This document shows, piece after piece, positions 2,690-61,596 of a stretch of DNA of 64,000 nt; position 1 is the first letter of the stretch; every line of letters starts with the position of its first letter. The DNA lies in the NCBI GenBank assembly GCA_051530055.1, contig CM121341.1, positions 9,898,784 through 9,962,783 on the forward strand, given 5' to 3'. Under the pieces are notes generated by a model. The model was not told where the DNA came from. It did not search any database and saw only the letters and a program-made list of their open reading frames with translations. Source of the DNA: Neoechinorhynchus agilis (lineage: Eukaryota > Animalia > Acanthocephala). The position numbers and the translations under genes were made by a program.

Positions 2690-3320
2690 CCACAATCACC
2701 TATTCAACTCAAAATTAGATTCTTACGGGGATAACTCTTGACATCTCCTCCCCCTTATCGTCTCCAAACTTCTGGCGGGCGTCTGGTACGTGTACTCCTT
2801 CGAAGAGCAATAGTATGTTCAGGTTCGGATCTTTCTAATAATGGATTTTAGCGGCGTCACGTTCTATGGACGAAGTACTTTATTATTATTATATCCACAT
2901 TGGTCAAATGCTTGTTGTCCTTCTTCATTCGGCGAAAGGAAACTTCTTCCGGCTGCCCGTCATTCACGTGAAAGAAGTCGCCGCTACAGGATCGTCTTCC
3001 AATCTCTGTAATTTTGGATCGTCTTCTTTCTCGTCTCGCTTGTCTTCGATCGGTGAGCTGTTTCCCATCTTATTCCCTTCCGCATCTTTTCCGGATTCTT
3101 CTTCGCTGTACTTTTAAAAGTCCCCGTGAATCCTGTGCTCTCCCTCTGATTACTATCTTCGATCGTATATGAAACGGGGCCGCTTCTATCCGTTATCTCG
3201 CCTTCGTTCCAAGTCTGATCATTAGGTCTTTTAAACCAAATCGCTTGTCCTTTCTCGAATTCCCTGAATTTCCTCTTATGGTCGTATTCCCTCGTATACT
3301 TTTCCGCGACTGACTCGTGA
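2690..3320 (-). mobile_element. Ty3/Gypsy 3' end: integrase C-terminal region, polypurine tract and start of 3' LTR
   Basis: Minus strand reads YDHKRKFREFEKGQAIWFKRPNDQTWNEGEITDRSGPVSY. PPT AAGGGGGAGGAGA (2756-2744) is directly followed by TGTCAAG at 2743. Confidence 0.75.
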
Positions 3321-8974: not shown

Positions 8975-10976
8975 ATCTGAAAAGGAATTTGGAAAAATTC
9001 ATGGCCTGATCTGTCCGAGTAATCGTGAAGGCCCAAGTGGTGCAGAAGAGCAACAAGAAGAAATTGATGCCATTCAATGGAACGTTGAAGAATTCATTCA
9101 AAGGTTAAAAAATGATGAATCCATTGTCTTCGGCGGTAAAGGGTTCATAACTGAGGTTACACCCGACGATGAAATCGAACTTGCAATCGAAGCAGCTCTT
9201 GCTTCAAACGAAACTTACAAGTATGGCTTTTGCGTTGAATCCGATGGAAGCATAGTTCCGACTACAAATATTTAAATTCTCTTTGCTTGTTGACCGTTGT
9301 GTTTTCCTTTAACTACCACTTTTTTTATTCAGATGATCGATAAAGGAAAAACTACTAAGACGCTTGTTGTTCACATTTCACGCTTGCCTGATTTTATTGA
9401 AAGAGAAGGCGCCCATCTCAGGGTGACCTATGTATGTTTCTGTACATTGATCTGGGTTGCTTTGTTGAGTTGCATTAGGCTTGAAAGTTAAAGAAAAAAC
9501 AGGGAGTTTATGGGAGAAATGAGCAGGGGTTTTGAAAAACTTTTAAACGCTAATTACGATGGGCAAATAAAGGTTACTTAATTCTTAAAGAAACATGTGG
9601 ATTCCGATAATTGAGGTCTTTGTCTTATACGTTGGACCCAAATAAACCATGATTCCCGTATTTGTGTACTTGTACAAACGCCAAGCGCACAGTTGAATAC
9701 GAATTATCCGCGTTTTAACATTTTTACACCAATTCGTATCAAAAAGATGAACAAATCAAAAAGACGCCTACAACTGAACGGCCAACATTGGTCAAACACT
9801 AAAGAATGAAAAACTAGGAAATTAGGCGATTAAGAATTAATAATAACACATTTTTTTGTTCAAAGCAGAAAAACCATGTACCTTTAAGTCATCGTGAGCA
9901 CTCGAGTTCTTATTTGTTAAATGAATGCGGTTCTTCACCTTGTAGTGGATTACGGGTTCGTTCTGGTGGGAATATCCCATCGGGGGATGTCCGATCTGGT
10001 GGAGATTCGCGGATATTGTTCGCAGAAGAGCTTGTGAGGTTGGGTCTTTCCTCAGGTTCATTTCTAGTCATGATATCCGCGAAGATTGAGCAGTGTTGTG
10101 AAGGGAGCTGAAGTGGACGGGGTCCGATGTATTGGAGGATTTAATGAATCGGGATTTCGATTGTTGTGTTCATGTTAAAAGGGGAATAGAATGTGGTAAA
10201 AATTGTAGTAATAGAGAAGATAGGCGTTTTAATTGTTTGATGAAATTCTATTAAGGAATTAAGTGAGCGGGGGAAAATCACGAGCCCATAGTGAATTTAA
10301 AACTCGATGCCGCATTCACTGTAAAACTTTATTTAAAATCTGTACAAGTTCACCAGTTTCTTGAATATCGCCTTATACAACTTTTTATTGTTTGTACGGA
10401 TCGAAGTTATATTCGTTGAGCATTATCGCCCAACGCACTAACGGGTTTTTTTAAATTCGTCAGAAATATGTTTCTTAGGAATACGCGTGGGACTTGTTCA
10501 AAATTACTTGTAAGTTTTCTACTATCTAAACCCGTTTTCCCACGCATTTATCTCGCCCTCATCAAAACAAACTATAGACAGCATATCTACTCCAAGAAAG
10601 ACCGAAAGTAGTCTTTTTATATGAGGGAAATGGACTCAAATGACTTCAAAAAAAGCTGATATTCTCATCATCACTAAGTCCAATTATCACACTTAAACAT
10701 AGTTTCCGTGTATTTCACATTGACTAATAAAACCGATAAATAAACGAGAAATGTTAAAAAAATTCTAGCTTGTATATGGCAACATGAGCTCAAACTTCCA
10801 GTAATCATTTACTGTTCGAATCAAATAAATTTTCCAAATTGTGGGTAAGCAACAACTAGCTTGCTACCTTCTACCCCTTGCTTTTCACCTTGTAGCATCT
10901 CCTATGATAAAGGCAAACCAATACACATTGGTGCTCTATATACAAAATATTGTTCCTGGCTCCTAACACCAAACCA

Positions 10977-11869
10977 ATGAGTCAGGAGAGGGTGACAACC
11001 GAACAGAATCAATCGGATAACCAACGAGCCCGAAGGTCCAATCCATGGGGCCAGTTATCATATGAGGATTTAATAGTAGCAGCCATCAATAGTAGTACCG
11101 AAGAACAATTGTCAACAAAGCAAATCTGCAAATATTTATGTGATAATTTTCCGTATTTTGCAGAGCGTAGAAAAGGTGCAATTGCAAAAAATTGGAAGGT
11201 AGCAAAACGATGTTATAAGAAAACGTTTTCATTGTAATTCATTTTTAGACTTCAGTAAGACATAAGTTGTCCGGTTCCCGTAGATTTATCCGAGTGCCAA
11301 TTCCGAACAAACCGAAAATATCTCATTGGCGAATTGATAAAAATTACAGAAGATACCAAGGAAGGCAAAAGAACAGAAATCCTACAAGAACGGATCAGCA
11401 AGCTTCCAGAGTTGGGCATAACCATACAATAGTACGAAATTGGCCATCTCCTCCACTTCGTATAAAACGGCCAAGACCGGACGAAGGACAAGCGCCAATA
11501 GTTCCGCCTCCGACCAGAATAATACGACCATGCAGTTCGTCCGGTCTTATTGTTCGGCGGTTGAGTCCTCAAGAAATCGAAGACCAAACATTGCGAAAAC
11601 AAGATGATGCAGTATCTAAAAGTAGTGGTGTTGGTGGTGGTACAGGAGATGATTCGGATGACAACTCAGGTTCGTCGTCTGAAAGTGGCAACAGCGTTCA
11701 CAATAGACCATCTTCTCAAGCCAATAGAACCGAACAAAATGAGAGCACATTGATGAATCGAGAATCGCCGCCACATTATGAAGCGTTAAATAGCTGGGTG
11801 GACGAAAATGGAGTTGCTCATTCCTCCACGTACTCACCGCGTGATCCATATTATATGGACGACAACTAG
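10977..11869 (+). CDS. FoxO: FoxO-like forkhead transcription factor, copy B (exons 10977-11198 and 11249-11869), apparently intact
   Basis: Same motifs as copy A but with WK retained (AKNWK|TSVRHKLS). GT-AG intron 11199-11248; open to TAG at 11869; AATAAA immediately downstream. Confidence 0.8.
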
Positions 11870-12084
11870 AATAAATTATAGTCATTATAGGTTTACAATA
11901 AACGGAGGGAGGGGAGCTCTCGAAACAAAGAATCATTGTGGTCAAATGAAATGGGGAAAAATAATATATCAAAGACTGACTTTAAAAAGTAAAGTGTAAT
12001 TGGACGAAATAGTTCAAGGTCAGTCTTTGATATAGAATTTTTTCCATGGATATGATCGGTTTCAAGGCACCATTTGTCATGTTT

Positions 12085-12800
12085 TACCGGTTCCAGTATG
12101 CGTCATCAACTCTGTCCATTTTAGATGACCAGCCGTATTTCAATTGCCGCCGCAGCTTTTTGAACGTCCGATCCTGCTTAGTTGCTAACTCGAGCGTTTT
12201 GCGCGACAGCTATATCTCCTCAACGCGTTGTTGGTGATTTGCAGCTAGTATCTTAACATCTACTGAATTCACAATAAATTTCTTCTGATCGTTCGGTAAC
12301 CTCGATAAGCAGTCAGCATACAAATTTGTTTTGCCTTTAACGTATCTTATATCGAAATTGTATTCGTTTAGCATTATCGCCCAACGCACTAACCTTCCGT
12401 AGGTCATCTTGCTGATATCCCTCTGGTACCCGAATATGTGCTTTAACGGTTGGTGATCAGTTTCTAGCATTTTATGTCGCCCATAAAGGTATTTATGAAA
12501 ACGCTTGATTGCGTGCACGATGGCTAAGGCTTCTTTGTCTATGGTAGCATATCGCACTTCCGTGGGATTAAGTTTTCGTGACGTCAACATGATTGGCGCT
12601 TCCCTGGGCCCCTGACCATTGGCTTGAATTAAGGCGGCTCCAATACCATAGTCACTTGCATCGCACGCCAAAATTAGTGGTTTCTTTTCGTCATATAATT
12701 TTAAAGAAATGTGATTCGCGGTAGCTTCCTTGACGCGCTCGAACACCGCTGTCTGCTCCTTCCGCCATATCCAAACAGCTTTAGTCTTTATCAAATCATT
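12085..12800 (-). mobile_element. Ty3/Gypsy RT-connection/RNase H fragment
   Basis: ORF 12210..12794 has ACDASDYGIGA, TDHQPL and RWAIMLNEYNFDIRYVKG..N..AD.LSR. Confidence 0.9.
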
Positions 12801-15613: not shown

Positions 15614-16270
15614 TTATTGAGAATAACTCGAATAAACCCGATCAATGATCTTCCATACATCCTCAATTGACCAACGATTTGCAAAATACTCTTTCAAAAT
15701 CGGAACCGATTCTACCGTTCTCTTATTTCTAGAGACAAATTCACTTTTGGCTTCTTTGCGTAAATAGGAATGAATTGTTCGAAAATAGTAGTAGACATAA
15801 AGATCTGCGCAAGTCAATTGGTCAGTGATTATGTAACCACCTTTCCCATAGAGCTGCTCTAATTTTTCAAGTAGAGCGATTGATTTCGGTATTTCCTCGT
15901 CGTAAAACGTTTGCTGCCTTGCTGGGCTTTCATTAGGTGGGACTTGAAAAGCTTGTATAAGTTTTGAGAAATATTCATCAACGATCAAAAGGACTGCATC
16001 GCAACGTGCAGCGTCAATTCGCGTTTTTCCATTCAAGTTATACTTTTTACTGAGGAATCGAATTATCGAGCTTGTTTCACACAGGACTTCATCGTCTACC
16101 TTGAGAACTGGAACTTTGTTTAATGGCATAACGGGTTTATATTTCAAAGGCCAATCTTCAGTTTCAAATCTAAGGTCCGTGAACGGTATACCAATTGCAT
16201 GAAGCATTAGTCGTATAACTTCAGCTCGTCCTTCGAGATCAAAGTAATAAAGGGTGTATTCAGGGAACAT
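15614..16270 (-). CDS. Glutathione S-transferase, sigma-class-like, intronless and intact
   Basis: YTLYYFDLEGRAEVIRLML, MPLNKVPVLKVDD..LCETSSIIRFL, and C-terminal LTCADLYVY (N-capping box). Confidence 0.92.
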   Translation of the reverse strand: MFPEYTLYYFDLEGRAEVIRLMLHAIGIPFTDLRFETEDWPLKYKPVMPLNKVPVLKVDDEVLCETSSIIRFLSKKYNLNGKTRIDAARCDAVLLIVDEYFSKLIQAFQVPPNESPARQQTFYDEEIPKSIALLEKLEQLYGKGGYIITDQLTCADLYVYYYFRTIHSYLRKEAKSEFVSRNKRTVESVPILKEYFANRWSIEDVWKIIDRVYSSYSQ

Positions 16271-16835
16271 CGCGCTTGATGCTAGGTATTCTTTTTCGAC
16301 TAAGAACGAACTTCTGAGGTTTTGCTAAGACTCAAAAGTTTTTCATTGCTCATTGAAGTGAGACTGAGGTGAGCAAAGAGTCGCATTGTCATGATCGAAA
16401 ACTAGATCCTCACTTTATTTGTCGTTGTTGTAGTCCGGGCTAATTTTATTTTCAATTCCCAATAGCGATTCCATCGATTAATTTACAAAATTGGAAACAA
16501 AAATTTAGAGAGATTTAATTGCTCAAAATACAATTGGTAGGGGAATATATCACTAAAGTCTGCACTCGAGATTTTTTGACAGCATTGCAATAATATGCTT
16601 CTTTGTTGTTTAGAAGAAGATTTCAATTATGTTTTAAAGTAACTCACACGCCTAACCTATTGCAAAATATGTTTACGAAAATATCCATAAAATCGATTTT
16701 CACTTGCTTTCAAAAGCACGCTCGTTAGGGCACAATAACCAGTAATTTATTTACCAAATTTCACTAGAACTCTGATATGGCCAATCCGATTCAGCACGCT
16801 TAGTGTGTTAAAAAAACGTACAACAATAAAGCGAA

Positions 16836-17450
16836 ATGAGCAATCCAAAGCAAGTTGAACAAACGATTGAAATCGAAGACGAACCTGTGCTTGATAGTCC
16901 AATGATCAATTCATTATCAGAGAGTCAAATAGCGGAAACTCACAGCGAGTTAGAAAGACAACCAATAACTGAACTTATTATAGATTTACAAACGGATATT
17001 GTGAAGTGTCAGAAAGAGTTGGAAATATATCGGAATAAAGACGAAATCGTAAAAGATGAAATAAATCAAATTAGACTGAATTTGCGTAAATATCGTACAA
17101 TGATGGAACAACGCGTGGAGGAAAATAAAAACAAGTGTAAAAATAAGGCTCGCGAAACAAAATCTCGAGTTACAGTGATGTTATCAAAGCTCAAAACTGA
17201 AATCGATGACATGGAAGTTTTAAATAATAACTTGAGGGAATTGCTCACGAAGGAAAAAAATCAGATTGAGCAACTTAAAGTGGAAATCGATGACTTGAAT
17301 GTACATACTGATGAAGTTGAACGAATGTTGGTTAGAAAAGATCGTCAGATTGATTTCTTAAATAATTGGATCAAGGAATTCGAAAAGACTTATACTTCGA
17401 TGAAGGCTAGGTACCATGCGATTCAAACTGAAAATTCGCGCTGTGTGTAG
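16836..17450 (+). pseudogene. Coiled-coil protein gene, 3'-truncated copy (full copy 51857-52735)
   Basis: Near-identical to ORF 51857..52735 until 17435, where it is fused to a non-LTR RT fragment. Confidence 0.8.
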
Positions 17451-17914: not shown

Positions 17915-19260
17915 TAGATGTATTGAAGAGCAGTGGATGCCAAAGCTGAAGAAACTCCTGAGCTTTTGAAATTGCTATAGGTCGGTTCGGTTTTTAGCCA
18001 AATGGACCATCATCACGGTAAAGAATGTCGGCACGCAAGATTTCGCGAATTGAGACAAATGACAGAAGAGGATGAGAGACGGTCCCACCACCATGATTCG
18101 ACGGTGCCGATAACCGAGCAGGAGGAAGAGATGCAAGTTCAGGAACAGGAACCCGCTGACCCATATGAAGGCCTTAGCACCCTCTGCTGTAAACAGCCCA
18201 TTTTTAAAGGATGCTTTTGAATTTACGGTGGATCGGGGGAGATGGTTGCTGGAAAGGACTACTTCGTAAATCGATAATCGGTGACTGAAGAAATAATATA
18301 AAGACTACACATTGAAAACGTCGGACTGAGGCAAAGAGGATGGTGTATTATCAATCTCCTGGTTTTAGAAAAAGAAGTGGAAAATCGAAGATCGAGATTT
18401 TATGGAAAAATTAGTTAGTGATATCGCATTTCAACTAACTGGAAAACGGACGAATGCGCTTCATAAAACATCGTTGTAATCGCGTTGTTAAAGTAGAATA
18501 AAACGTCCACATTGGCAGGCAGGCGCCCAGTGGCCGTGCGGTGCGCGCGTTCATAAAGCGCTTGATATGTCGCTGGTTCAACACCACCGGTCGCTGGGTT
18601 CCACGGTTGTGTGAGGCTGCTGGAAGGGGTGGGGTCAGGTTTTGAGATCGCCCATGCCCTGTTCCTTCGAGTGCGGCTAAGCGCCTCCGTTGTGCGCAAG
18701 TTAGCCGAAAGGCTCAAAAAGGAATATAGCCGAAGCTATCAAAGAAGATGTCGCAGGACCAATGAGTGTATGTGGCCCTTGATAATAAAATAAAAATAAA
18801 ACAAATTGGCAGGCAGCTCAATTTATACTTTTCATGGAAAAACATTTTTTGACCCAATTGCCGAAATAAACGTACATCTCTAAACGAAAATCGGAATATC
18901 AACGTTTCCAGTAATTTTGAGAAATACTACTCGCATTGAGCCGCTCGTCCTAAATGCGAAGGTTCCACCATTCGCTTCAAAATCGCTCGATTCATCTTAG
19001 AACAAAAAAGAACGAAGTGAGGAACGCGAGTGCATCGATAGAAAGCGGGCAGCGATTTAGAAGGTACAAAAAATAGAAAAATTCACGGTCTCTGTAATGA
19101 TTTGGCGCCCGTTTAAAAAAATTGTCGTCATTTTTCCGCGACGCAATGGCCGAAATAAACGTATATTTTTAAACGAAAATTGGAATATCGACGTTTCCAA
19201 TAATTTCGAGAAATATTACTCACATTGAGGCGCCCGACCTTGTTACGAATGATCTATTAT
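17915..19260 (+). repeat. Segmental duplicate of ~47080-48110; includes a ~290-bp repeat unit also at 36100, 38755 and 40520
   Basis: CTTAG(A/G)TGTATTGAAGAGCAGTGGATG... shared. GAAAA(T/C)TGGAATATC recurs at 18885/19174 and 47764/48054. Confidence 0.9.
18511..18816 (+). mobile_element. 282-bp retroposed insertion with A-rich tail and 12-bp target-site duplication
   Basis: ATTGGCAGGCAG at 18511-18522 and 18805-18816 flanks a GC-rich insert ending ATAATAAAATAAAAATAAAACAA. The paralogous site at 47683-47694 has a single copy and no insert. Confidence 0.85.
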
Positions 19261-19793
19261 TCGCTCCAAAATCGCTCGATTCATCGTAGAACAAAAAGAA
19301 CGAAGTAGGGAACCAGAGTACATCGATAGAAAGTGGGCAGCGATTTAGAAGGTACAAAAAAATTGAAGAATTCAAGCTCTGTGTAATGATTTGGCGCCCG
19401 TTTAAAAAATTGTCGTCATTTATGTCGAAAAAATTAATTTGTGAGAAGTTGCCATTTAGTCCTCTTGCTCGAAGTGTTTTTAAATTAACGGTGATTTTAT
19501 TCGTTTTCTAGGCGGTTGCATATGAACTGTTTAAAAGTTCAACATTGAACCGATGGATAGTTGCAGGTTTCCTAGAATAGAAACTAACAATCGATTTTTA
19601 AGCCGCTTCGTTCGCTTAGCTCAGTTCATAAATCGCAGCACAATCCAAAATTAACAAATAACGCTTTTTATCCTAATCACATGGACCGCTTTGGGTCGTG
19701 GCCAGAAATTTTAAAAACAATTTTACTTTAAAAAAGTAAAAAACGGAATTGCAACCTAACGTTGAAACGGAAAGTGTCAAACCGCCTGCCAAT

Positions 19794-31900: not shown

Positions 31901-31997
31901 TCGACATAAGAAGTTTAATGTCATATATCATTGTCCTCGGGGTGAATTTGATTGTGCGTTGGCGAATCCTTTCCCCGGTGTTTTCGTTACTCATTTA

Positions 31998-32047
31998 TTT
32001 TAGAAATATTTCGCAAGGTTTTCCTTGCCTCTTCAGTCTATCTAAAA
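31998..32047 (-). ncRNA. Minimal hammerhead ribozyme in the inverted pseudo-LTR
   Basis: Reverse complement: ttttagataga-CTGAAGA-g-GCAAGG aaaa CCTTGC-GAAA-ta-T-T-tctaaaa (perfect 6-bp stem II). Confidence 0.8.
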
Positions 32048-33898
32048 TGGAGGGCATAGACAGCATGCACAGCCGGTCACGTCTGGATGTAGCTCAGATC
32101 TGCGGGTTTGCTAATACCCGAATTGTGGGGAGTTCCATCCGCACACACCTCTTGCGGTTTGTTGCCGACTAATTTGCCCGTCATGCTACGCAACTTTGGT
32201 AGCACCAGCGTGTGCCTGGACTCTGGCAAGTTCGTCAAACTCAGTTCCAATCCAACAGTAAAACGGGAGACACAACTAAATGCATTCTTGAGGACTCTAC
32301 GGAAAAATAACTCGATTACTGAGCACTTTCATCAACATACGAGGTCTTCTACAGCCAGGGCTTCCTTCTTGTATCTTTCCCCAAAAATACACAAACCAAC
32401 GATACAATACCGACCAATAATAGCCAGCTACAATGCCTTCAATCATCGTTTGGCCCGTAGAATCAATGCACTAATAAGAAGCGTAATGCCGAACACTCCG
32501 TCATACATAGCTGACGGCCCTTCCTTTGGAACCCGAATGCGACTGGAAAAGTATGCACAGTGCAAATTCTTCACGGCCGACGTAAAGTCCTTATTTACCA
32601 ACATTCCACTCCAAGAGACAATTTCCATAGCAGCTGAACTTCTACAAAATCAATGCGAAGAACCGCGCCTTGATCATAAAACGTAGATAGCTCTACTGCA
32701 GTGGTGCACATGCAAGACCGTTTTTGAATTCGATCAAGTTTTCTATGAACAACGCGACGGAGTTGCAATGGGTTCACCTCTGGTACCCACTCTAACAGGT
32801 CTCTACATGAGAAGATGGGAAAACAACTTCTTGAAAATGCAATCCAACATCAAAATCTGGTATCGCTATGTTGACGACGTGTTCATAGTCACTGATGATG
32901 AAACAAGCATGGGAGACCTAAGCATTCCACTCAACATGAAGGATTCAAACATCCAGTGGTCAATGACTCAGGAAGACGACGAGGGTGCTATCTCCTTTTT
33001 GGACGTAAGGATAAAACACGATGATAAAGGCAATATCAAAACACAGCTCTATCGCAAACCAGGTATAGCATGGGGTCCACCTCACTGGTCGAGCCACCAA
33101 CCGTTCCACTATAAAATAACAGCGGCAACGTCCTACTACTTCAAGAGGGCCAGGATGATTTCTTCAGAAAGCAGGGATTGGGAAGAAGAAAAACAAAATA
33201 TCACCAAAGTTCTCAGATAACGAGGCTTCCCTGAATATGCCATCAAAATCAGTCTGAAAAAGGCAAAACAGCGGCCACCGCAAGAAGAAGGAAACCGCGA
33301 GCATCTCCCTCGAATACACTGACTTTTACCACATAAGAGGGAACGCGACCGAAAAACTGAGGCGCCTCAACTACCTCGCTCCAAATCTTTTGATCTACAA
33401 CAAACGGGGCGCATCCATTGCGGGCATTCTCAAGAGGAAAACCAAGCAAGAGACCAAATTAGGGATATACAAAATCCCATGTGCAGAATGCCCAAAGGTC
33501 TACATTGGACAAACCATGCAAGGGATCATTAAACGGATTTCGCAGCATAAACAAGCTTGCAGGACATTCGACAAATCCTCAGCAATCTCGAACCACCAGC
33601 AAACAATCCAGCACAAGGTGGATTTTGAAAAGGCGAGATTCATAACCAGCGAACCGGATCTTAGAAGAAGACTGATTCTTGAGGCCATTCACATCCGGGG
33701 AAATCCGACGATAGAAGGCGATAAATCAAACCACACACTGGTGCTACCAAAGTTGCGTAGCATGACGGGCAAATTAGTCGGCAACAAACCGCAAGAGGTG
33801 TGTGCGGATCGAACGCCCCACACTTCGGGTATTAGCAAACCCGCGGATCTGAGCTACATCCAGACGTGACCGGCTGTGCATGCTGTCTATGTCCTCCA

Positions 33899-33947
33899 TT
33901 TTAGATAGACTGAAGAGGCAGGGAAACCTTGCGAAATATTTCTAAAA
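33899..33947 (+). ncRNA. Minimal hammerhead ribozyme in the 3' pseudo-LTR
   Basis: taga-CTGAAGA(33910-33916)-g-gcaggg aaa ccttgc-GAAA-ta-T-T-tcta; stem II has a G-U pair. Confidence 0.78.
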
Positions 33948-35691
33948 TAAATGAGTAACGAAAACACCGGGAAAGGATTCGCCAACGCACAATAAGAAGT
34001 TCAGATGGAAATTCCGTGCTGACGAACTTTTTAAAGCCTGGAGATCTAACCCCTCCAGAGCGAACAACAATTTTGGTGTTTCTCCTTCCATTTTCAGCAG
34101 TGTAGAGGAGGGTAATAAACTCCTCTTTTTCAACCACTTCAATGATAAAATTGAAGTGAAGGATCTGCTGAAAATTAATATACTTAAAAAGACTTTTATC
34201 CGCAAAAATAAAGTTAAAAAATCACTACTGCCTCTCACATACGCATTATATCTATTCAAAATCCGCTAATCTCAGTTTTTGAAAGAATCTTTAATGGTAA
34301 ATTATTGAATCACCTAATCAAGAAGAATGTTATTCCTAGTTATTTTCATGGTTTTATTCCGGCCAGAGGTGTTCATACCCTTCTTGAAAATCTCAATCAA
34401 CTAAACATTGACTTCATATATGTTAATAAATTTCTTCTTCAACTGGACCTGCCTAAGGCTTTCGATTGTGTTGATAGAAATTTTTTATATGAAGCCTTGA
34501 ATTTGTTTGAGCTTTCCTCTAATCTTATCTTCAAAATTAACCATATTATCGAAACCAAATCTTTTTACTATGATATAGACCCTGATCGTACAAAATATAT
34601 TCTTGCTGTGTTGAAATTCAATCTTGTTGTCATGACAACGCTTAGTTTAGGCTATATGTGTTTTCAAAGTTTAACAATGCACACGGTGTTCCACAGGGCT
34701 CACCTCTCCCCCACCCTTTTCCTCTGTATACTCATGTATATTTTTAAATCCAAACTGCCTAAGAGCAAGAGCATATTTCCTTTAATACATGCTGATGATA
34801 TTTTCCTCTTTTGCATACATAAGAGCCGCAGTTTTTTAATCTCCCACGTCTTATCATTCTTGACTCAGCTCCAATTCCACTTCAAAGCAGCTGACTTATC
34901 TATCAACCCCAGGAAAAATGTATTGACCCCTTTAAGCAAATCTTCTCATGCGAGATCGCTTCTAAAGAAAGATCTCAGATCTAATTTTACTTTCTCCCAA
35001 TTCGTTTTGTCGAGTAACGATAGAATTTTAGGCATCGACTTCCCTTCGTCTAAAAATCGAACATATGCTAATTCTTCTTTAATGGCTTTTTCTTTTCCAT
35101 TAGGCGTATTTTAAAAAGATCCTTGAAACTTGATCTATGTCACTCCTTCATCCCAAATATTATTTTACTTTCATACATAGGCGGAGCCATCTGTTTTTTT
35201 GCTCGAGGCCGTCCTACCGAACTAAGATTTTTCTTTTTTAATAAATTTATCGACAAATTTAAAAAATTACTCCGCCATTTTCCGTTTACAGAATATTTTT
35301 AACTAAGGCATGTTATTACTCCTCTTCCTTTCCCTTAACCAAGCTTTTATTTTTTAACAATCCGGTGCATTTCAGCTTTCAGAGGGTTTCAATATTCTAC
35401 TATAAAGTACTTTATCAATTCTATGTCTTATAAAGACAAAAAGAGCTGTTTGTATTAACTACGAGGCTAGTTTTCTTGTTTTTTGAAGGTAAGTAGGGGT
35501 ATTGAGGAGCTAAGAGTTCGCTCATTACTCAGCCCCCACTCGCTTCTTCGTTTTCTTTACCTTTAGATTTTACATTGATTATTAGAATCAACTCAATCTA
35601 AAGAAAACAACTCATAAACTTTTTTTGCTTTTTAATTTTTTTGCGGAAAATATATATTTTAAACAATTCAAACAATGTGTTTGAAGCACAC

Positions 35692-35814
35692 TCACCACCT
35701 CCCGCCAAATTCCAGCTTTTGTCCTTCCTCGATCGCCGCGATGACGCTGGCAGCATTGCCTCGTTGTTGCCAGCGAGATATTTTGTCGAAGGAATACGCC
35801 TGCTCTTGAGTCTC
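35692..35814 (-). mobile_element. CRE-type element 3' terminal fragment
   Basis: Encodes RQNISLA..NAASV.A.IEEGQKLEFGGRW, as at 3645 and 57019. Confidence 0.85.
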
Positions 35815-36229
35815 GTATGCGTGTATTAATAAATAAATAAATAAGATAGTGTCTGTGTGGTTAATGAACCCTGTTGTAAATCGGTGTGCAAGGATGAAAG
35901 ATCGCAACCGCAGGTCGCTGTTAATATTCTGTCGACCGCGACCGACTTAATGTACAAAAGCATCGAGGTTTTAGGTCAGACGGTGGGCAATCTCAGGGAT
36001 TTCTACCATGCGGAATCTAATCCCGTCCGCTTTTCTTCAACTTTTAATAAGTTCAAAATAAAGCGTCCACGATGCAATGACCTAAATGAACGTACATTCC
36101 TAAGCGAAAATTGGAATATCGACGTTTCCAATAATTTCGAGCAATATTACTTACATTGAAGCGCCCGACCTTGTTACGAATGATCTATTACTCGCTCCAA
36201 AATCGCTCGATTCATCGTCTAGTTTATGT

Positions 36230-36940
36230 TTGCAAAAGAATGACCCCATAAAGCACACAAAAGTTCATTTACGAGTCGATGCAGATACACAGTGTGTCCG
36301 ATTTCCGACGAGACGAATTCCGTTCGCACTAAACAAACCGTTAAAAGAAGAACTTGACCGTTTGGTCCAGCGTAGAATTATAGAGCCTGTAGAGAAGGAG
36401 GACAATGATGTCAGCTGAATCACGCCGATAGTCATTGTTCGGAAAAAAGACGGATCCGTGAGAATATGCGGGGATTTCAGGATCACGATTGATCCCCATT
36501 TAATTACCGACTCATATCAGATGCCGACTACGGATGAGCTTCTCAGCAAACTGACGGGAGGAAAAAAATACTCCGTTCTGGATTTGTCAGATGCATACCT
36601 GCAAGTTGAGCTCGATAAGGAAAGTAGCAAACTTTGCGTATTCTGCACACCATTTGGGCTATTCAGATACAGGCGTTTACCTTTTGGACTAACAAATGCC
36701 CCTCAGTTATTCCAGCAGATAGTGGATGAAATGTTGAGAGACGTTCCGAATGTTGGAGTGTATTTGGACGACATAATAATCACCGGAGGGGATGATAAGG
36801 AGCATATTTCGATTCTTCGAAGGGTATTAAGTATTCTGGAAGAGAAGGGTTTTAATTTAACGGAAGAGAAGTGCAAGTTCATGCAAACAAAAGTTACGTA
36901 TTTGGGGCATACGTTGGAGAATGGTTGGATAAGGCGTCCA
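36230..36940 (+). mobile_element. Ty3/Gypsy reverse transcriptase fragment
   Basis: RICGDFR, DLSDAYLQ, PFGLTNAPQLFQ, YLDDIII and YLGH; nonsense codon at ~36418. Confidence 0.92.
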
Positions 36941-37390
36941 ACTGATTATCGAGATGACTAAAAACTGGGCAGTCGTTCGAGGTGCCAACTTGACTTCTAC
37001 TGTTGGCGATCCTATCACAATGCCCTGGTGGCGGCGAGCTTACTACCGAGTGTTAGTCAGCGTACGTAATAGGCAACAATTAAAGCGCTTTGCGGTTATG
37101 GGGCATTTGTTATGGGCTCATTTAGTTGGGCATTATGGTGATTCCTATTTGCCCTACTTGTGGACTGAGTCAACTGTGGCGAGCTACACGGTGCATTGCC
37201 CTGTCAAGGACGCCACTTCTGTCAAGCTGCGTAAACAGGGTTGTCCCTTTCCGGGCAGGCGGGCGAATTGTGTTCCCTACGTTGATGATCAACTCGAGCA
37301 AGGTTCCCGACTGGGGGTTGTAGAGCCAAATAGCCAGTATACAGACCAGGGTAACCAATCTCACGCCACGCGTCCACCCAGCGCTGCTAA
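36938..37390 (+). other. Noda-like virus protein A fragment, piece 3 (region approaching the RdRp)
   Basis: Overlaps piece 2 by ~105 bp (7 substitutions, 1 gap). Continues NLTSTVGDPITMPWWRR...; in a shifted frame SQIASIQTRV resembles the nodavirus SI..RV motif upstream of the RdRp core. Confidence 0.55.
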
Positions 37391-38525
37391 GCCCGAAACT
37401 TGCCCACGACAATGCCCTCAGCCTCCCAGCTGTGGTACTCATGAGCGTAGACGTCGCCGCCTCTCGTGGTCATCGTGACGAACTCATTTTGGACTCGTCC
37501 TGTTACCTCTCCATCAAACAAACTGAACTCTGCAGCGGGACGGTAACGCGCAAACTCATGGGTTATAATGACAAAGGGTGAGTTACAAGCGTCAGTAAAA
37601 TTCAACAAGTGGAATGTAAAAGTCCCACATAAGACAGCACAGCCATCTTATTTGGATCAGTGCACTCCTGGAGTCTATGATAACACAGTGATGGTGAGTC
37701 AACAGACAACAGCGTGGCTTTATCAATGACAGTGATGTTCAGGTAGCAGATGTGGTCGGTTTGCAGGGTGTCCCTCTTCGCAGACCCTCCTACATCACGA
37801 TAGGCTTTGTTGGCCAGCCTCTTCATAACGGAATCAGCAAACTCTTCCAGCTGGGCTCTGACGTAAGCCATGGTCAGGTGCCCTGTCAAGTCATTGCTTT
37901 GAACGAGTGGATGATCCTTGGTGAACTGCTTGAACAGTGCTTTGATCGTTCCAACTTCAATAGGCAATACAGGAGCATCTTGCTTAATACCATATCCAAT
38001 ACACCGGCAACACCACAACATGACAGCCCTTGACACGAACAAAGTGACATACATCGCTGTGCCCAATACGACGAAACAGATAGCGGCCCAGACAACTGGG
38101 ACAATCAACTTAATCAAATCAATGGCAGTCCAGAACGATAGATAATTCAACACTTGGTGACGAGGTACCTCGAACCCCAGGGCAGCATACAAGCTGCAAA
38201 TTAGTGGGATTTTTCGGGTCAATTCACATTGTCGAATGATCGAATCTGCAGAATGGCGAGACAATCGACGTAACAAAACGTCGGATACCTGTTTCTCGAG
38301 CACGCGTCGCAAACACACGAGGTGCCAGGGCTCCTTTCCCGAAAGTAAGCTGCTGGCAACGCTTACACTATCAATGACAGGTATAACCATCGTGCCGAGG
38401 GAGTAAACTAATCTGGTCCAAAAGCGCTCGAACAAGCCAATAGCAGCTGGGATACCACAAACCATTAGGAACAGTGGTAGCACAGTCGTGAAGGGCGAGA
38501 AAATCAGTCGAATCAGGAAAATCAT
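37390..38525 (-). other. Noda-like virus protein A N-terminus: hydrophobic anchor and capping methyltransferase, piece 1
   Basis: GHLTMAYVR (37883), RDVGGSAKRD (37799), CYHRLQEC, (Y)VDFYI after a frameshift, and PFVIITHEF..DGE..V..TTRGGDVYAHEYHSW. This parallels Flock House virus H..A.R / VDYY / HTF..VSGGA.WVH.VWDW. Confidence 0.8.
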
Positions 38526-38934
38526 GATCAGAGGAATCGGTGTGCAAGGATGAAAGATCGCAACCGCAGGTCGCTGTTAATATTCTGTCGACCGCGACCG
38601 ACTTAATGTACAAAAACATCGAGGTTTTAGGTCAGACGGTGGGCAATCTCAGGGATTTCTACCATGCGGAATCTAATCCCGTCCGCTTTTCTTCAACTTT
38701 TAATAAGTTCAAAATAAAGCGTCCACGATGCAATGACCTAAATGAACGTACATTCCTAAGCGAAAATTGGAATATCGACGTTTCCAATAATTTCGATCAA
38801 TATTACTTATATTGAGGTTGTAGTGAGCATTAACGACGTCATAAGGTCCATGTTAACGTTTTCCGTGTTATGTTGAATAAATAAGCCATTTTTGTGCAAC
38901 GACAGTAGATTTTTCGATCTACTGATGCCAGCCG

Positions 38935-39399
38935 TCGTTAATTACGCGCGACTTTGTTCCTGGGGTCAATCAATAGTAATTTTCATGTACCCAGTTAGGT
39001 GGTCTTATATCACTGGCGACCAAAAGAACTTGGCCAATACTGTTCCAAAACATGCATCTAGCTATGTCATTGGGTCTTACAGGCAGCACAATGTTCAGGC
39101 TGTGCATGAAGGTCAAGACTACGTCTTCAAATCGTTTGACAATCACACTGTCACGTTGGGCTCCATTCGCGCCACCACGGTCATGCAAGCAGCCTTTCAG
39201 GTTGCTTTTTTAGAGAGAATTGAGAATTGGGCTGGCGTGTGCCGCACTCTTATCAGCCACAATGATGACAAAATGGAGGTTATTGATATGGCGGCCCAAC
39301 TGATTATCGAGATGGCTAACGACTGGGCAGTCGTTCGAAGTGTTAACTTGACTTCTATTGTTGCGATCCTATCACAATGCCCTGGTGGCGGCGAGCTTA
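38935..39399 (+). other. Noda-like virus protein A fragment, piece 2 (post-methyltransferase region)
   Basis: Open frame QSIVIFMYPVRW...AAQLIIEMANDWAVVRSVNLTS; shares its 3' 104 bp with piece 3. Confidence 0.55.
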
Positions 39400-39429
39400 G
39401 AGTTGCTTCATTTATGAATTTTGATTCCA

Positions 39430-40050
39430 AGAATATTTTCTAATTGGCGGTGGGTTTAGGGTTGCTTTTCGATGTAGTGTTCGTCTCATTCTTCTCTCGC
39501 TGAAAACTCATCCTCGTCTTCATTAAGGACCTTTTAATTGCCCAATTCGGATATCCTTCCTCTCTGAGCATTGATGTTATTGAGTCAATTCCTTGCCTCC
39601 GTCATTTCTCCTCGGAGCATATTCTCATAGCTCTCCTGAATAAGGCATCCGATGCTGCTATCTTGTATCTCACAGGGTGGTCAAGTCCAGTTTTGGTTCG
39701 CCACAGTTTTTCTTGAGTATTTTATCCGTCAACTCAATGGCCTCTTGAAGAGGAATGTTAGTGAATAAAGATTTAATATCGGCCGTTATAAACCATGATA
39801 TGTTTGATGGAAGATTCCGCACTTCTGCGAAATTCATCAATAAAGCAACGCTGAACAAATTACAACCTCCTATAAGAAGATGCGAGACCCACTCGGTGTC
39901 AATATATTCAAAAGCAGCAACGAAGTTGGCGGGTATATTCAAAAAGAAACCAAAACAAGAGGATAAAAGTATAATCTAAAAAGTACCATGCAGACAATGC
40001 GGAAAATATTATGTTGGACAAACAATTCAAGGACTAAAAAAGCGCCCCCC
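39430..40050. mobile_element. Penelope-like fragments in opposite orientations
   Basis: Minus 39790-39480: ADIKSLFTNIPLQE and HPVRYKIAA..LFRRAMRIC. Plus 39820-40050: II*KVPCRQCGKYYVGQT (GIY-YIG). Confidence 0.8.
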
Positions 40051-40869
40051 CTTTTCCTTTGAAAATCGGGATCATAATACTTCACCTCGATTCGTCTGGA
40101 ATCCGCTCAATATCGAAGATACGTCGTACAAATTTAGTCAATAAATGAATAGCATCATCTCTAAATTTTTCGATCTACTGATGCCAGCTACCACAACAAT
40201 TGGTGACCCCGACGCTGTCGACCGTGGTTCGACAGTAGAAGCGAATAGCAACTTGTATACCTTCCGTTTACAAGCGTAAACATTATTATTGTGATTTGAG
40301 TTTTGAAAACTATTTACAATCTACCGCCGTCATTATCATGAAATAAAAAGACATCAGGTGTACCAATACCATTATTCGCTTTATGGAGATCGCTACCACG
40401 CCCAAAAGGAAAAGTTTATTTGTGTGTGGCGCTAAAACCAAAGGGATGCCCTAATACTTCAATGCAACAAACTGATTTCACCAATTACACAAAAAATGCA
40501 CTACATTTTTAAAAGAAAGTTGGAATGTGGAAGTCTTCAATAATTTCAAACGAAGTTTCCATTATTCGCTCCCAAATCGCTCGACTCATCTTAGAACAAC
40601 AAAGAACGATGGGAGGAACACAAATGCAACAATAGAAAGCGGACAGCGATTTGGAAATTACGAAAAAATAGAAGAATTCAAGCTCTATGTGATGATTCGG
40701 CGCCCGTTTAAAAAAATTATCGTCATTTTTATTGAAAAAATTAATTTCTGAGAAGTTGCCATTTAGTCTTCTTGCTCCAAGTGTTTTTAATTTAACGTCG
40801 ATTTTATCCGTTTTCTAAGGTGTTACAGGTTTTCTAGAATGGAAACTAACAATCGATTTTAAGTGGATA

Positions 40870-41065
40870 TCCTATCAAGTCCAGAGTTCCGATCTAATGA
40901 TGAATGTCCCACTACAAAACGAAAAAAGATGTTAAATCTATTCTTGCGCTGAAGAAACGTGGAAGGATTGATCCTGAAATATACCAAAAACATCGTTCCA
41001 GTAACGGAATGACATCGATTATGTAGTTATTGGCCAAAGTTCATAAGTCCCCATTAAAGATCAAC
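40870..41065 (+). mobile_element. Penelope-like RT N-terminal fragment
   Basis: LKKRGRIDPEIYQK...LLAKVHKSPLK, comparable to PKIHK/AKIHK in the other PLE copies. Confidence 0.55.
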
Positions 41066-42559: not shown

Positions 42560-43290
42560 ATTTCACTTTCAGCCTCCGTGCCGCCGTATTGAAAGAAGAA
42601 ACAAAAACCGACAGTATTTTATCAAAAATCCGCCAATACTTTAAATATGACTGGTCAAACTTTTTGGGAAAAAGAATTCAACACTTTCCATGGGAAAAGA
42701 ACTGAATTTTCGTTGGAAGATGGCGTTTTGTTTTGGTTGAGAAGGATGATTACACTGACAAGTCTTATACAGGTGGTCTTAACCAGTTTGCATACCGGCC
42801 ATCCAGGAATGGCCTCAATGAAATCATTGGGTGGTCTCAACTCTCAGTCAACGCATTAATTGAGCTCTCGTGATTTTCCGTAATAGCATCATCCTTAAAT
42901 TTTTGTGGCAACATGTACTCCGTGTCAGTGTGTCTGACCTTCAAGGCCCGAGGTACCTCTAGAACAGCGAAACATTCCGTCCAAGGCATACAACATATTG
43001 ATTTTGCCAGCCCAAAGAATAACACATACTTGCTGGTCGTGGTGGACGCCCACAGTAAATGGCCTGAGGTGATTCAGATGCGATCGTGCAAGACACCCAC
43101 GGTAATTTTACGATTATGCGAGATGTTTGCTAGATTTGGTGTACCAAAGAAAATTATCTTCAGATCCGAAGGCTTCAAAGAATTTTTGGATTAAAACAAC
43201 ATTCGTTTAAGACACGCGACTCCGTATCATCCAAAGAGTAATGGGTTAGCTGAGCGTTTTATAAGGACGATAAAAAGTCGGATAATTAAT
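42560..43290 (+). mobile_element. Ty3/Gypsy integrase fragment, frameshifted
   Basis: LHTGHPG, HIDFA, YLLVVVDAHSKWPEV, FARFGVP and YHPKSNGLAERFIRT. Confidence 0.88.
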
Positions 43291-43318
43291 GTGTAAAGAA
43301 ATATGGATGCGCAGGCCG

Positions 43319-43760
43319 TTAAGACTGCAACAATTCTGCAAGGAATTTCAGGAGGTGTTCTGGCGGTCTGCCTCTAGAGAAGAAGACAAGGCCCGAAATG
43401 TCCCAAGAATTCCAGACCGATTTGATCGCGTTTAGTCCAAGACCTAGACTAAACGCACTCTTGGCTTGGATTCTGGCAATCTTCAGCAGCTTCTTGAGCT
43501 TAAATATGTTGTGCGTAATACTCAAATGAATACTGAAAGTATACCCCAGAATATCAATCTTATTATAATGGGGGAGGCTATCCAGCTTAAAGAAGTCCGA
43601 GCAGAATTCTCTGGCTTTGCGTTTCCCTAGCACTGATTTAGATTTTAAAATAAATCTAGTTTTGTTGGGATTGAGCTCGAGGCCCATCCGAGAAAGCTTC
43701 TCAATGAGAAAGGAAAAATAGGCTGCGATGAACAGACGATTCGAACCCAAATTTTTCTCT
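43319..43760 (-). mobile_element. LINE RT C-terminal fragment
   Basis: LSRMGLELNPNKT and DILGYTF (post-motif-C region). Confidence 0.6.
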
Positions 43761-51856: not shown

Positions 51857-52735
51857 TCAGTGGAATTTCAGAGGAAATGCACCTGAGATTCTATGAATTA
51901 TAGAGCGTATCCTGAGGAAAATCATTTGGCCGAGTCTCGCTGTTTGGTATTTGCAAGCACGATAATATGTTTGGAATGATGGTTTGTTTGATCCAGGAAA
52001 TAACCACTGAACAGCATTTTCGATGAAGCTCTTGCACTTAATGGCAGTTGCCGATACAACCATCGACCGTTCTTTGTATCTTATCTCCATCTCGAGATCT
52101 TGACTCGTCTCGTGCATAAAATTTGATAGCTGGTCATTTTCAGTTTGAATCGCATGGTACGGAACCTTCATCGAAGTATAAGTCTTTTCGAATTCCTTGA
52201 TCCAAGTATTTAGGAGATCAATCTGACGATCTTTTCTAGCCAACATTCGTTCAACTTCACCAGTATGTACATTCAAGTCATCGATTTCCACTTCAAGTTG
52301 CTGAGTCTGATTTTTTTCCTTCGTGAGCAATTCTCTCAAGTTATTATTTAAAACTTCCATGTCATCGATTTCATTTTTAAGCTTTGATAACATCACTGTA
52401 ACTCGAGATTTTGTTTCGCGAGCCTTATTTTTACACTTGTTTTTATTTTCCTCCACGCGTTGTTCCATCATTGTACGATATTTACGCAAATTCAGTCTAA
52501 TTTGATTTATTTCATCTTTTACGATTTCGTCTTTATTCCGATATATTTCCAACTCTTTCTGACACTTCACAATATCCGTTTGTAAATCTATAACAAGTTC
52601 AGTTATTGGTTGTCTTTCTAACTCGCTGTGAGTTTCCGCTATTTGACTCTCTGATAATGAATTGATCATTGGACTATCAAGCACAGGTTCGTCTTCGATT
52701 TCAATCGTTTGTTCAACTTGCTTTGGATTGCTCAT
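51857..52735 (-). CDS. Coiled-coil protein of unknown function (292 aa), full-length copy
   Basis: Uninterrupted ATG ORF with heptad-like E/K/L-rich middle; lies within the inverted duplicate 52136-53356 of 16216-17435. Confidence 0.75.
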   Translation of the reverse strand: MSNPKQVEQTIEIEDEPVLDSPMINSLSESQIAETHSELERQPITELVIDLQTDIVKCQKELEIYRNKDEIVKDEINQIRLNLRKYRTMMEQRVEENKNKCKNKARETKSRVTVMLSKLKNEIDDMEVLNNNLRELLTKEKNQTQQLEVEIDDLNVHTGEVERMLARKDRQIDLLNTWIKEFEKTYTSMKVPYHAIQTENDQLSNFMHETSQDLEMEIRYKERSMVVSATAIKCKSFIENAVQWLFPGSNKPSFQTYYRACKYQTARLGQMIFLRIRSIIHRISGAFPLKFH

Positions 52736-53301
52736 TTCGCTTTATTGTTGTACGTTTTTTTAACACACTAAGCGTGCTGAATCGGATTGGCCATATCAGA
52801 GTTCTAGTGAAATTTGGTAAATAAATTACTGGTTATTATGCCCTAACGAGCGTGCTTTTGAAAGCAAGTGAAAATCGATTTTATGGATATTTTCGTAAAC
52901 ATATTTTGCAATAGGTTAGGCGTGTGAGTTACTTTAAAACATAATTGAAATCTTCTTCTAAACAACAAAGAAGCATATTATTGCAATGCTGTCAAAAAAT
53001 CTCGAGTGCAGACTTTAGTGATATATTCCCCTACCAATTGTATTTTGAGCAATTAAATCTCTCTAAATTTTTGTTTCCAATTTTGTAAATTAATCGATGG
53101 AATCGCTATTGGGAATTGAAAATAAAATTAGCCCGGACTACAATAACGACAAATAAAAGTGAGGATCTACTTTTCGATCATGACAATGCGACCCTTTGCT
53201 CACCTCAGTCTCACTTCAATGAGCAATGAAAAACTTTTGAGTTTTAGCAAAACCTCAAAAGTTCGTTCTTAGTCGACAAAGAATGCCAAGTATCAAGCGC
53301 G

Positions 53302-53356
53302 ATGTTTCCTGAATACACTCTTTATTACTTTGATCTCGAAGGACGAGCTGAAGTTA
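53302..53356 (+). pseudogene. GST 5' stub (first 18 codons)
   Basis: MFPEYTLYYFDLEGRAEV is identical to the start of 15614..16270, then unrelated sequence follows. Confidence 0.9.
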
Positions 53357-54039
53357 CACACAAAATATTTTTGACGGAGGTACAAGCTACAGTCCAAGTG
53401 GATGGGCCATATGGCGGACTGGGCTCTCTGGGTTCAAAGATGGACACAAATGGAAGAGGAGTACGCGAGACGCAAGATGTTAGAAGCGCTGGAACAATTG
53501 GGTGGACTTGATAACCCAAGTTTATCCCAAATGTTGACAAAGGGTCATTGTGAGCAATTCGGCATTAAGGCTACTCCATATTTACTAGATTCTATCTCTG
53601 ATTTTAAAATGGGTAAAACAATGGATCTATGTCGAATGATAAACAGTTCTCCAGAACATGTAATTGCATCAACTCTGCCCTTTATCGAGGTCACGGATAA
53701 TTTGTTAAAGCTCTGTGTAAGCTTAAAAGCCTATTGGAACACTGTCTCAATACCAACTTAGAAATCTTCCAATTACAATTAGCAATAGAATCTATAGGTA
53801 GCAAAATTGACCAAAATCCAGTTCATTAATCGATGGATTATACCATTACCAACAAATTGCAGTTCATTTCCACGACTAAGATGAACAGTAGGAATTCCAT
53901 AACATCATTGGGTATGGATTTTTAATGGACTTACAAAATTCCAACAATCCAATCGATGCATCGCCAAAATCACTTTCACTTGGTAACACTGTCCAATCTC
54001 TTCACTTTTAAAAGCAAGACCACCAACTTTATTCGTGGT

Positions 54040-60373: not shown

Positions 60374-60697
60374 ATGGCTGACGAGTCTCCGCACCAGAAG
60401 GGTTTTCCTTCGCAAATGGGCGATTCAGGCGCAAAGCAGGATGAAGTTGAGCCTTACATTAAGTTGAAGGTAATCAGTCAAGAGATCGGGGAGGTATACT
60501 TTAAAGTGAAATCGAATACTGTTTTGGGTAAACTCATGAAGTCTTATGCTGAGCGGGTTGGTTTGCCCGTTGGGACTCTACGTTTTATGTATGACGGTAA
60601 AAGGATCAACGAGGGTGAAACAGCAAGGCATTTGGGTATGGACGACGAGGATTGTATTGAAGTGTATCAAGAACAAGTTGGTGGGCACGTTGATTGA
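60374..60697 (+). CDS. SUMO: SUMO precursor, second intact copy
   Basis: Identical to 22845..23168 except CIDVY changed to CIEVY. Confidence 0.95.
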   Translation: MADESPHQKGFPSQMGDSGAKQDEVEPYIKLKVISQEIGEVYFKVKSNTVLGKLMKSYAERVGLPVGTLRFMYDGKRINEGETARHLGMDDEDCIEVYQEQVGGHVD

Positions 60698-61055
60698 GTT
60701 ACTACTCATGTTCGAGAATAAAATATTTTATCTGTTCGACTGTTCAATGAACTCACGGCTGATTTTTGGCTCAAGGCCAAGAAAGCTCTCTAAAGGGAAA
60801 AATATTTAATAGAAACCATTCTACGTTCAATTTTTGCCCCGTCTGTTTCAAACGAGACTGATCAATAATGATCTCGCTTCGCATTATGCAATAAAAAGTG
60901 GCTTTTGTTATCTCTGTTATTCAATGGTATTCGTCGATATTCTCAAGTTTGCTTGCTTTTCTGGCTAAAACATTGCGGAACAACTTGGCGATCGGAGAAC
61001 GACTTATAATGATCTTAATTATTCTTTTTTTTGTCGCCATCGGCAAAAGCAAACA

Positions 61056-61596
61056 ATATCGACGAATACCATTGAATTACAGAGATAACAAAAGCCACTT
61101 TTTATTGCATAATGCGAAGCGAGATCATTATTGATCAGTCTCGTTTGAAACAGACGGGGCAAAAATTGAACGTAGAATGGTTTCTATTAAAGATTTTTCC
61201 CTTTAGAGAGCTTTCTTGGCCTTGAGCCAAAAATCAGCCGTGAGTTCATTGAACAGTCGAACAGATAAAACATTTTATTCTCGAACATGAGTAGTAATTC
61301 AATCAACGTGTCCACCAACTTGTTCTTGATACACTTCAATACAATCCTCGTCGTCCATACCCAAATGCCTTGCTGTTTCACCCTCGTTGATCCTTTTACC
61401 GCCATACATAAAACGTAGAGTTCCAACGGGGAAACCAACCCGCTCAGCATATGACTTCATGAGTGTACGCAGAGCAATATTTGATTTCACTTTAAAGTAT
61501 AATTCCCTGCTCTGTGGGACTCAACTTCATCCTGCATTGCGCCTGAATCGCCCATTGGCGAAGAAAAGCCCTTCTGGTGTGGAGACTCATCAGCCA
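61056..61596 (-). pseudogene. SUMO: Inverted SUMO pseudogene with 3' flank, forming a fold-back with 60375-60940
   Basis: Reverse complement of the upstream SUMO gene and flank. ATG changed to TTG, a ~20-25 bp deletion in the YIKLKV region, several substitutions; 115-bp spacer. Confidence 0.9.

Follow-up and report, generated by a model that had tools for sequence, protein, structure and literature searches.

In the stretch of DNA analysed here (64,000 nt, hereafter the window), the reverse transcriptase (RT) frame of a Ty3/Gypsy element runs directly into the sequence of an RNA virus. The locus raises the question of how these two parts came to be joined. The first-pass annotation read the join as the product of an RT that switched templates onto viral RNA, and it named a later rearrangement of the DNA as the alternative. 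In the layout of the locus, a single viral RNA is represented by about 2 kb in three pieces (V3, V1 and V2) with host repeats between them, and the order of features is block X, a 289-bp repeat, the Gypsy stub, V3, inverted V1, block X', repeat R, V2 and a fold-back repeat (Table 1).

Table 1. Features of the locus and other Gypsy pieces, with positions in the window
Feature	Position	Strand	Evidence or remark
Gypsy C-terminal pol piece	3077-3310	-	
Gypsy RNase H piece	12063-12800	-	
Block X: 187 nt of two-copy DNA and part of the 289-bp host repeat	35879-36159	+	repeats, depth
289-bp host repeat piece, 5' boundary of the Gypsy stub	36066-36218	+	91.5% to 19135-19287
Ty3/Gypsy pol stub, 717 nt (pre-RT linker and most of RT)	36219-36935	+	RVT_1, tblastn, depth
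Microhomology	36928-36935	+	7/8 nt shared with viral 39285-39292, upstream of the second copy
V3: ORF1 past the methyltransferase and start of the overlapping RdRp ORF	36936-37392	+	RdRp N-terminus and ORF1 matches
RdRp ORF start in V3	37243-37386	+	one stop, 37321-37323
V1: inverted 5' part of ORF1, Chropara_Vmeth 4-170	37393-38534	-	frameshift near 37610
Block X': young direct copy of X, adjoins the V1 5' end	38535-38815	+	3/281 nt differ
High-copy host repeat R	38816-38932	+	depth >200 in X8
V2: Chropara_Vmeth 173-302	38933-39399	+	Pfam E 1.2e-11; mapped to P0122, L001-L004
High-copy fold-back-type repeat, terminates V2	39400-39853	.	opposite-strand joints
Gypsy integrase piece	42574-43419	+	

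The passage from Gypsy RT to virus without a spacer was borne out. The break lies at 36935/36936, with no host DNA between the two parts, because reads of a second Gypsy copy agree with the window up to 36935 and then diverge (10 in X8 and 14 in X6, which are raw-read runs of one sample); one contig in X1 and one in X3 likewise leave the window after 36935. The position first given, about 36938, is slightly displaced as the exact break but does mark where the match to the second viral copy becomes clean. Similarly, the motif YLGH...WIRRP ends the RT ORF at 36419-36961 (+), as had been noted, whereas the codons of its terminal RP span the break or lie past it. The join is crossed with zero differences by a contig of run X1, which may be the source sample (36880-37035), and by a contig of run X2 from another study (36862-37034), that is, in 2/4 contig runs; no join-bridging piece was listed for the X3 and X5 contig runs. 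In X8, letters of the window type were found on either side of the join, in 17/29 reads at 36910 and 11/39 at 36957. The junction is real and is not an assembly slip.

The Gypsy part carries one in-frame stop (36416-36418), followed by the RT ORF, which matched Pfam RVT_1 with E 6e-30. Pol-like relatives of this ORF made up 252/1481 candidate longer proteins at E<=1e-40, and those among the 120 matches listed were pol-like and 39-57% identical; the order protease-RT-RNase H-integrase, typical of Ty3/Gypsy, was present in the relative P0009. When the 120 pol proteins were used in tblastn, they aligned with about 36200-36950 and nothing contiguous was found past it; nor does Gypsy sequence resume past the viral pieces in the pol protein alignments. 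Gag, LTR, RNase H and integrase are all missing from the stub. The locus is not enclosed by a pair of LTRs; the sole near-identical direct repeat around the stub is X/X', and this terminates within a host repeat. Beginning at 36219, the depth over the stub in X1 is that of approximately two copies, copy numbers here being read-based and not whole-genome counts. A 1-nt deletion in an A run at 36562 was found in 17/32 Gypsy reads and probably belongs to the second copy.

Other Gypsy pieces are present in the window (Table 1), and Gypsy pol-like DNA amounts to 2823/64000 bases (4.4%). In pol coordinates the RNase H piece overlaps the integrase piece, yet the two share no DNA identity; they therefore come from different elements. 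The idea that the RT, RNase H and integrase parts are one shattered element was unsupported for the same reason, with score correlations near zero, and no link of the RNase H or the integrase piece to the RT stub was obtained. Block X was also considered as a Gypsy protease/LTR, and this was rejected: it has no match to pol proteins, reaches only two-copy depth in X1 and ends inside a host repeat. A viral origin of block X was rejected as well, there being no match to viral relatives (L001-L004).

To the viral side of the join, the pieces were ordered using a 725-aa protein carrying the whole Chropara_Vmeth domain (P0122) and viral contigs from IMG/VR carrying the capping domain (L001-L014, 1.3-5.7 kb). 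The latter came from searches in which 4/47 and 14/51 candidate stretches matched. V1 was matched by 14/14 viral loci; its Pfam matches to Chropara_Vmeth cover positions 4-96 (E 7e-12) and 105-170 (E 1.8e-18), and it corresponds to L001 ORF1 residues 167-358. V2 corresponds to residues 361-489 of the same ORF. In the coordinates of five relatives, the end of V1 and the start of V2 lie no more than about one codon apart, yet the two pieces have opposite orientation and are separated by 400 nt of host repeats. V3 corresponds to L001 ORF1 residues 503-563 and, in a second frame, to residues 3-50 of the RdRp ORF. The match of V3 to the RdRp N-terminus of L004 (E 6.5e-6, z 13.6) is accompanied by matches to ORF1 of five relatives (z 4.6-9.1), and the RdRp-frame match (z about 14) was equalled in 0/200 shuffles. 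About 48 residues only of the RdRp N-terminus survive. No RdRp core was found elsewhere in the window, and neither were other pieces of a chropara-like virus when 14 relatives were used as queries. The inversion and the X' joint are covered by one X1 contig (37006-38564, 1 difference).

The first ~105 nt past the junction (36938-37042) are repeated, with a 1-nt deletion, at the end of V2 (39296-39399), where the base at 39297, at the start of the duplicated stretch, is polymorphic. Since the V2 copy, 2.36 kb from the junction copy, continues the V2 frame, the natural upstream flank of the duplicated stretch is viral. The junction therefore cuts inside a longer insert, viral sequence from upstream of it being present at the same locus. 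A viral copy with another, older flank had been named at first pass as evidence against template switching. This was found in part, the copy at V2 having virus and not Gypsy upstream; among 18 of the 20 loose ends listed, no flanks of the duplicated stretch were found beyond the two in the window.

The repeats around the viral pieces indicate how far the locus has been rearranged. The final 27 nt of R are found again at 40162-40188, which places V2 and the sequence after it inside a split R copy; reads of X8 join 38908 to 40165. The joints of the fold-back repeat were found in the same run at 39399/39853 (87 reads) and 39401/39851 (79 reads). Non-Gypsy repeats adjoin 3/4 of the host-facing viral ends. 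Local duplications with >=90% identity take up 17472/64000 bases (27% of the window), and a part of them may be ordinary transposon copies.

An NCBI hypothetical protein from Neoechinorhynchus agilis (P0001) matches the V1 frame at every residue (99 + 168 of 267 aa). It is encoded at 37602-38576 (-) and skips a predicted 60-nt (20-codon) intron; P0001 is a viral fossil annotated as a host gene. Template switching by LTR-retrotransposon RT had been introduced at first pass from insects, and this setting is unsupported here, the host being probably the acanthocephalan N. agilis according to the single source label that P0001 carries. The locus as a whole is a non-coding fossil and at most a putative piRNA source; acanthocephalans retain PIWI and piRNAs (PMC12256650). 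Contig depth over V1, X', R and V2 (37660-39547) was about 4-10 in X2 and X5, runs that are guessed to be RNA and are possibly DNA, while it was 0-4 over V3 and none at 35000-35401. The V1 contigs stop at 37660 (X2), 37658 (X5) and 37716 (X3). The contig depth in X2 and X5 gives a hint of a transcript across V1-V2.

The virus had been called noda-like, which holds in a broad sense only: it belongs with the chropara group and not with Nodaviridae proper. Pfam has a separate nodavirus model. V1, V2, P0122 and L001 ORF1 match Chropara_Vmeth only and not the capping domain of the noda group; the bit scores for Chropara_Vmeth (PF19223) were 45.4, 67.1 and 44.7 at a curated cut-off of 22.9. Furthermore, the RdRp starts in a second overlapping frame in V3 as well as in L001-L004 (contigs of 3.5-3.6 kb with a two-ORF layout), so that the RdRp has an overlapping ORF of its own after ORF1 and the two are not fused in a single ORF. 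ORF2 of L004 passes the RdRP_3 cut-off of 27 with 29.4 bits, and ORF2 of L001 is below it (25.1). Nodaviruses have the capping domain and the RdRp in one protein A (PMC4392871), whereas CBPV RNA1 and the Lake Sinai viruses have a capping ORF and a separate overlapping RdRp ORF (PMC3911697). The chropara group, which also includes Anopheline-associated C virus, thus shares with the fossil the Chropara_Vmeth ORF1 and the overlapping RdRp ORF (PMC3911697, PMC4392871). However, the amino acid identity of the fossil to the nearest relatives compared, none of them a named virus, is only about 40-56%. Judged by domain content and ORF layout, the fossil virus is classified as chroparavirus-like and not as a nodavirus proper, and L001-L014 are a putative undescribed set of chropara-like viruses. 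Searches for longer homologs of V1 ORF residues 190-324 gave 0/144 candidates, those with P0122 against viral contigs 0/1 candidate stretches and those with A2 against metagenome contigs 0/184. ESM Atlas returned low-score leads only (best 0.84), and L001 RdRp gave three weak rows in PDB (best 8fm9_A, E 0.087).

Comparison of the Gypsy sequence before the break with the corresponding viral sequence gave the microhomology of 7/8 nt. An equal or better score was obtained in 2690/297471 Gypsy x virus position pairs (0.9%; p about 0.009), with offsets of up to 3 nt permitted in the scoring. A base loss and a substitution both lie at most 3 nt from the break. The join was made through microhomology. 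Short homologies are a mark of RT jumps and of microhomology-mediated DNA repair alike, and since both fit, the microhomology does not discriminate between them. The Gypsy stub and V3 also have the same polarity, which is required by a copy-choice switch and is yielded by random rejoining half the time.

The ages of the parts were then compared by their divergence. The viral duplicates differ at 7/104 nt and by one gap, and 6/6 changed codons change the residue, whereas in the same region of L001-L003 the changed codons are mostly silent (20/27, 19/25 and 14/18). This neutral pattern indicates that the duplicates decayed as host DNA; an origin of the two copies from different virus strains was rejected on the same 6/6 nonsilent codons. 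The neutral divergence fits a host duplication and two overlapping co-integrated cDNAs alike. The duplicates diverged by about 3.4% per copy (total 6.7%, CI 2.7-13.4%), and 0 stops in 679 ORF1 codons give a bound of <=3.8% (95%) for viral decay. The two Gypsy copies differ at 11/373 nt, with 4/10 changed codons silent (p 0.08 in comparison with the viral duplicates). The confidence intervals of the junction age and the integration age overlap, so the join may be as old as the integration. Blocks X and X' are younger than the viral duplicates (3/281 versus 7/104 nt, Fisher p 0.005), and scrambling therefore continued after the viral copies had split.

Based on the above results, we give an even chance to a join that arose once the virus had integrated, through microhomology-guided DNA repair or replication slippage and not by reverse transcriptase. 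The first step would be the copying of ~2 kb of viral RNA1 into cDNA and its entry into the germline, by way of an RT not identifiable at the locus. Two or more rounds of cutting and re-ligation among nearby repeats would have followed for this insert, one of which may have connected its 3' part (V3) to the Gypsy stub through short homology. Later rearrangement, the alternative raised at first pass, is at least as likely as a template switch, with the ORF in three pieces and one of them inverted. It is rated at this level because viral sequence from upstream of the junction is present at the same locus and most viral ends adjoin other repeats. Against it, a Gypsy element is not the likeliest neighbour to be met by chance, since Gypsy pol-like DNA makes up only 4.4% of the window.

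A primary template switch is a serious possibility that falls somewhat short of an even chance. Gypsy RT, copying viral plus-strand RNA, would have jumped to Gypsy RNA at the 8-nt homology during minus-strand synthesis. Integration of the chimera would have involved a further overlapping cDNA, or else a return switch would first have duplicated the 105 nt; the LTRs would have been lost, and V1 and V2 displaced, in later rearrangements. The direct join, the shared polarity, the 7/8-nt homology, the small share of Gypsy DNA in the window and the compatible ages all agree with such a switch, as do virus-LTR hybrids in mosquito cells, formed apparently without need for homology (PMC6797480), and the enrichment of same-orientation Ty3/gypsy neighbours next to Aedes EVEs (10.1101/127498). 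The cost lies in the extra switches or co-integration needed for V1 and V2 and in the loss of all other Gypsy parts. Moreover, the locus is demonstrably scrambled, no LTR-bounded element with target-site duplication encloses the direct junction, and the RNase H and integrase pieces come from different elements, neither of which could be linked to the RT stub. That the junction is the surviving primary footprint of Gypsy RT switching onto chroparavirus-like RNA in a thorny-headed worm is a reading we hold tentatively, as less likely than not.

It is improbable that viral cDNA fragments, produced by an RT of any kind (LINE, Penelope or LTR), were captured by a double-strand break in an existing Gypsy copy through microhomology-mediated end joining, with all viral joints formed in one event. 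Several non-LTR RT fragments are present in the window, and the microhomology, the 1-nt loss and the substitution within 3 nt of the break fit such end joining; however, Gypsy sequence is not resumed beyond the viral pieces and X' is younger than the viral duplication. An assembly chimera or live-virus contamination is scarcely credible even in a region so rich in repeats, given the bridging contigs from two studies, genomic WGS reads of a third study covering 30/30 bins of 35000-41000, the frameshifts and stop in the viral ORFs and the location of P0001 on a 19.4-Mb contig.

A non-retroviral EVE next to an LTR element is an already known type of arrangement. The non-retroviral EVEs beside Ty3/gypsy elements in Aedes (PMC6797480; 10.1101/127498; PMC8048955) show the same direct adjacency in the same orientation, a repeat-dense region and post-integration copies, EVE duplication after integration being described in PMC8048955. 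The present case differs in that the host is probably a spiralian parasite, the Gypsy part is a 717-nt RT stub without LTR or gag, and the viral pieces lie in both orientations. In the acanthocephalan Pomphorhynchus laevis, rhabdovirus-like RdRp sequences were reported (PMC12548735), which in the literature found are the sole viral sequences described for Acanthocephala, and fragmented RNA-virus sequence was likewise annotated as a host hypothetical protein; those sequences are from negative-strand viruses on unplaced contigs, whereas here a positive-strand capping-enzyme gene has its protein record on a 19.4-Mb contig. The titles and abstract openings found contain no description of a chropara-like EVE or a positive-strand virus in Acanthocephala.

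The main value of the locus lies in its probable host and virus group and not in proof of a mechanism. Under either mechanism, it is fossil evidence that a chroparavirus-like virus reached the germline of a probable acanthocephalan; the chroparavirus-like group was described from insects, and the host group has few described viruses. If the footprint is primary, the LTR-driven virus capture known from insects would also operate in a spiralian parasite with piRNAs, and a lineage of positive-strand viruses that infected acanthocephalan germlines would be recorded in the EVE. A secondary junction would warn against taking Gypsy adjacency together with microhomology as proof of template switching.

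Several other features of the window should be noted. No tRNA genes were found in the 64 kb. A 236-codon open frame at 15614-16324 (-) has glutathione S-transferase N and C domains and is an intronless gene or a retrocopy; it partly overlaps one of the duplicated blocks with 95-98% identity (1060-2667 / 10460-12074 and 16213-17435 / 52136-53359). These blocks gave weak Forkhead and coiled-coil matches below the cut-off and may be fragments of host genes that were copied to several places in this region. At 31951-33993, RT fragments and a weak GIY-YIG match (E 5e-4, below the cut-off) lie between 264-nt inverted repeats of 96.6% identity, which looks like a Penelope-type element. In addition, a 135-bp tandem array of 7.9 copies occupies 1-1067, and a 1.2-kb imperfect palindrome is located at 60375-61596.
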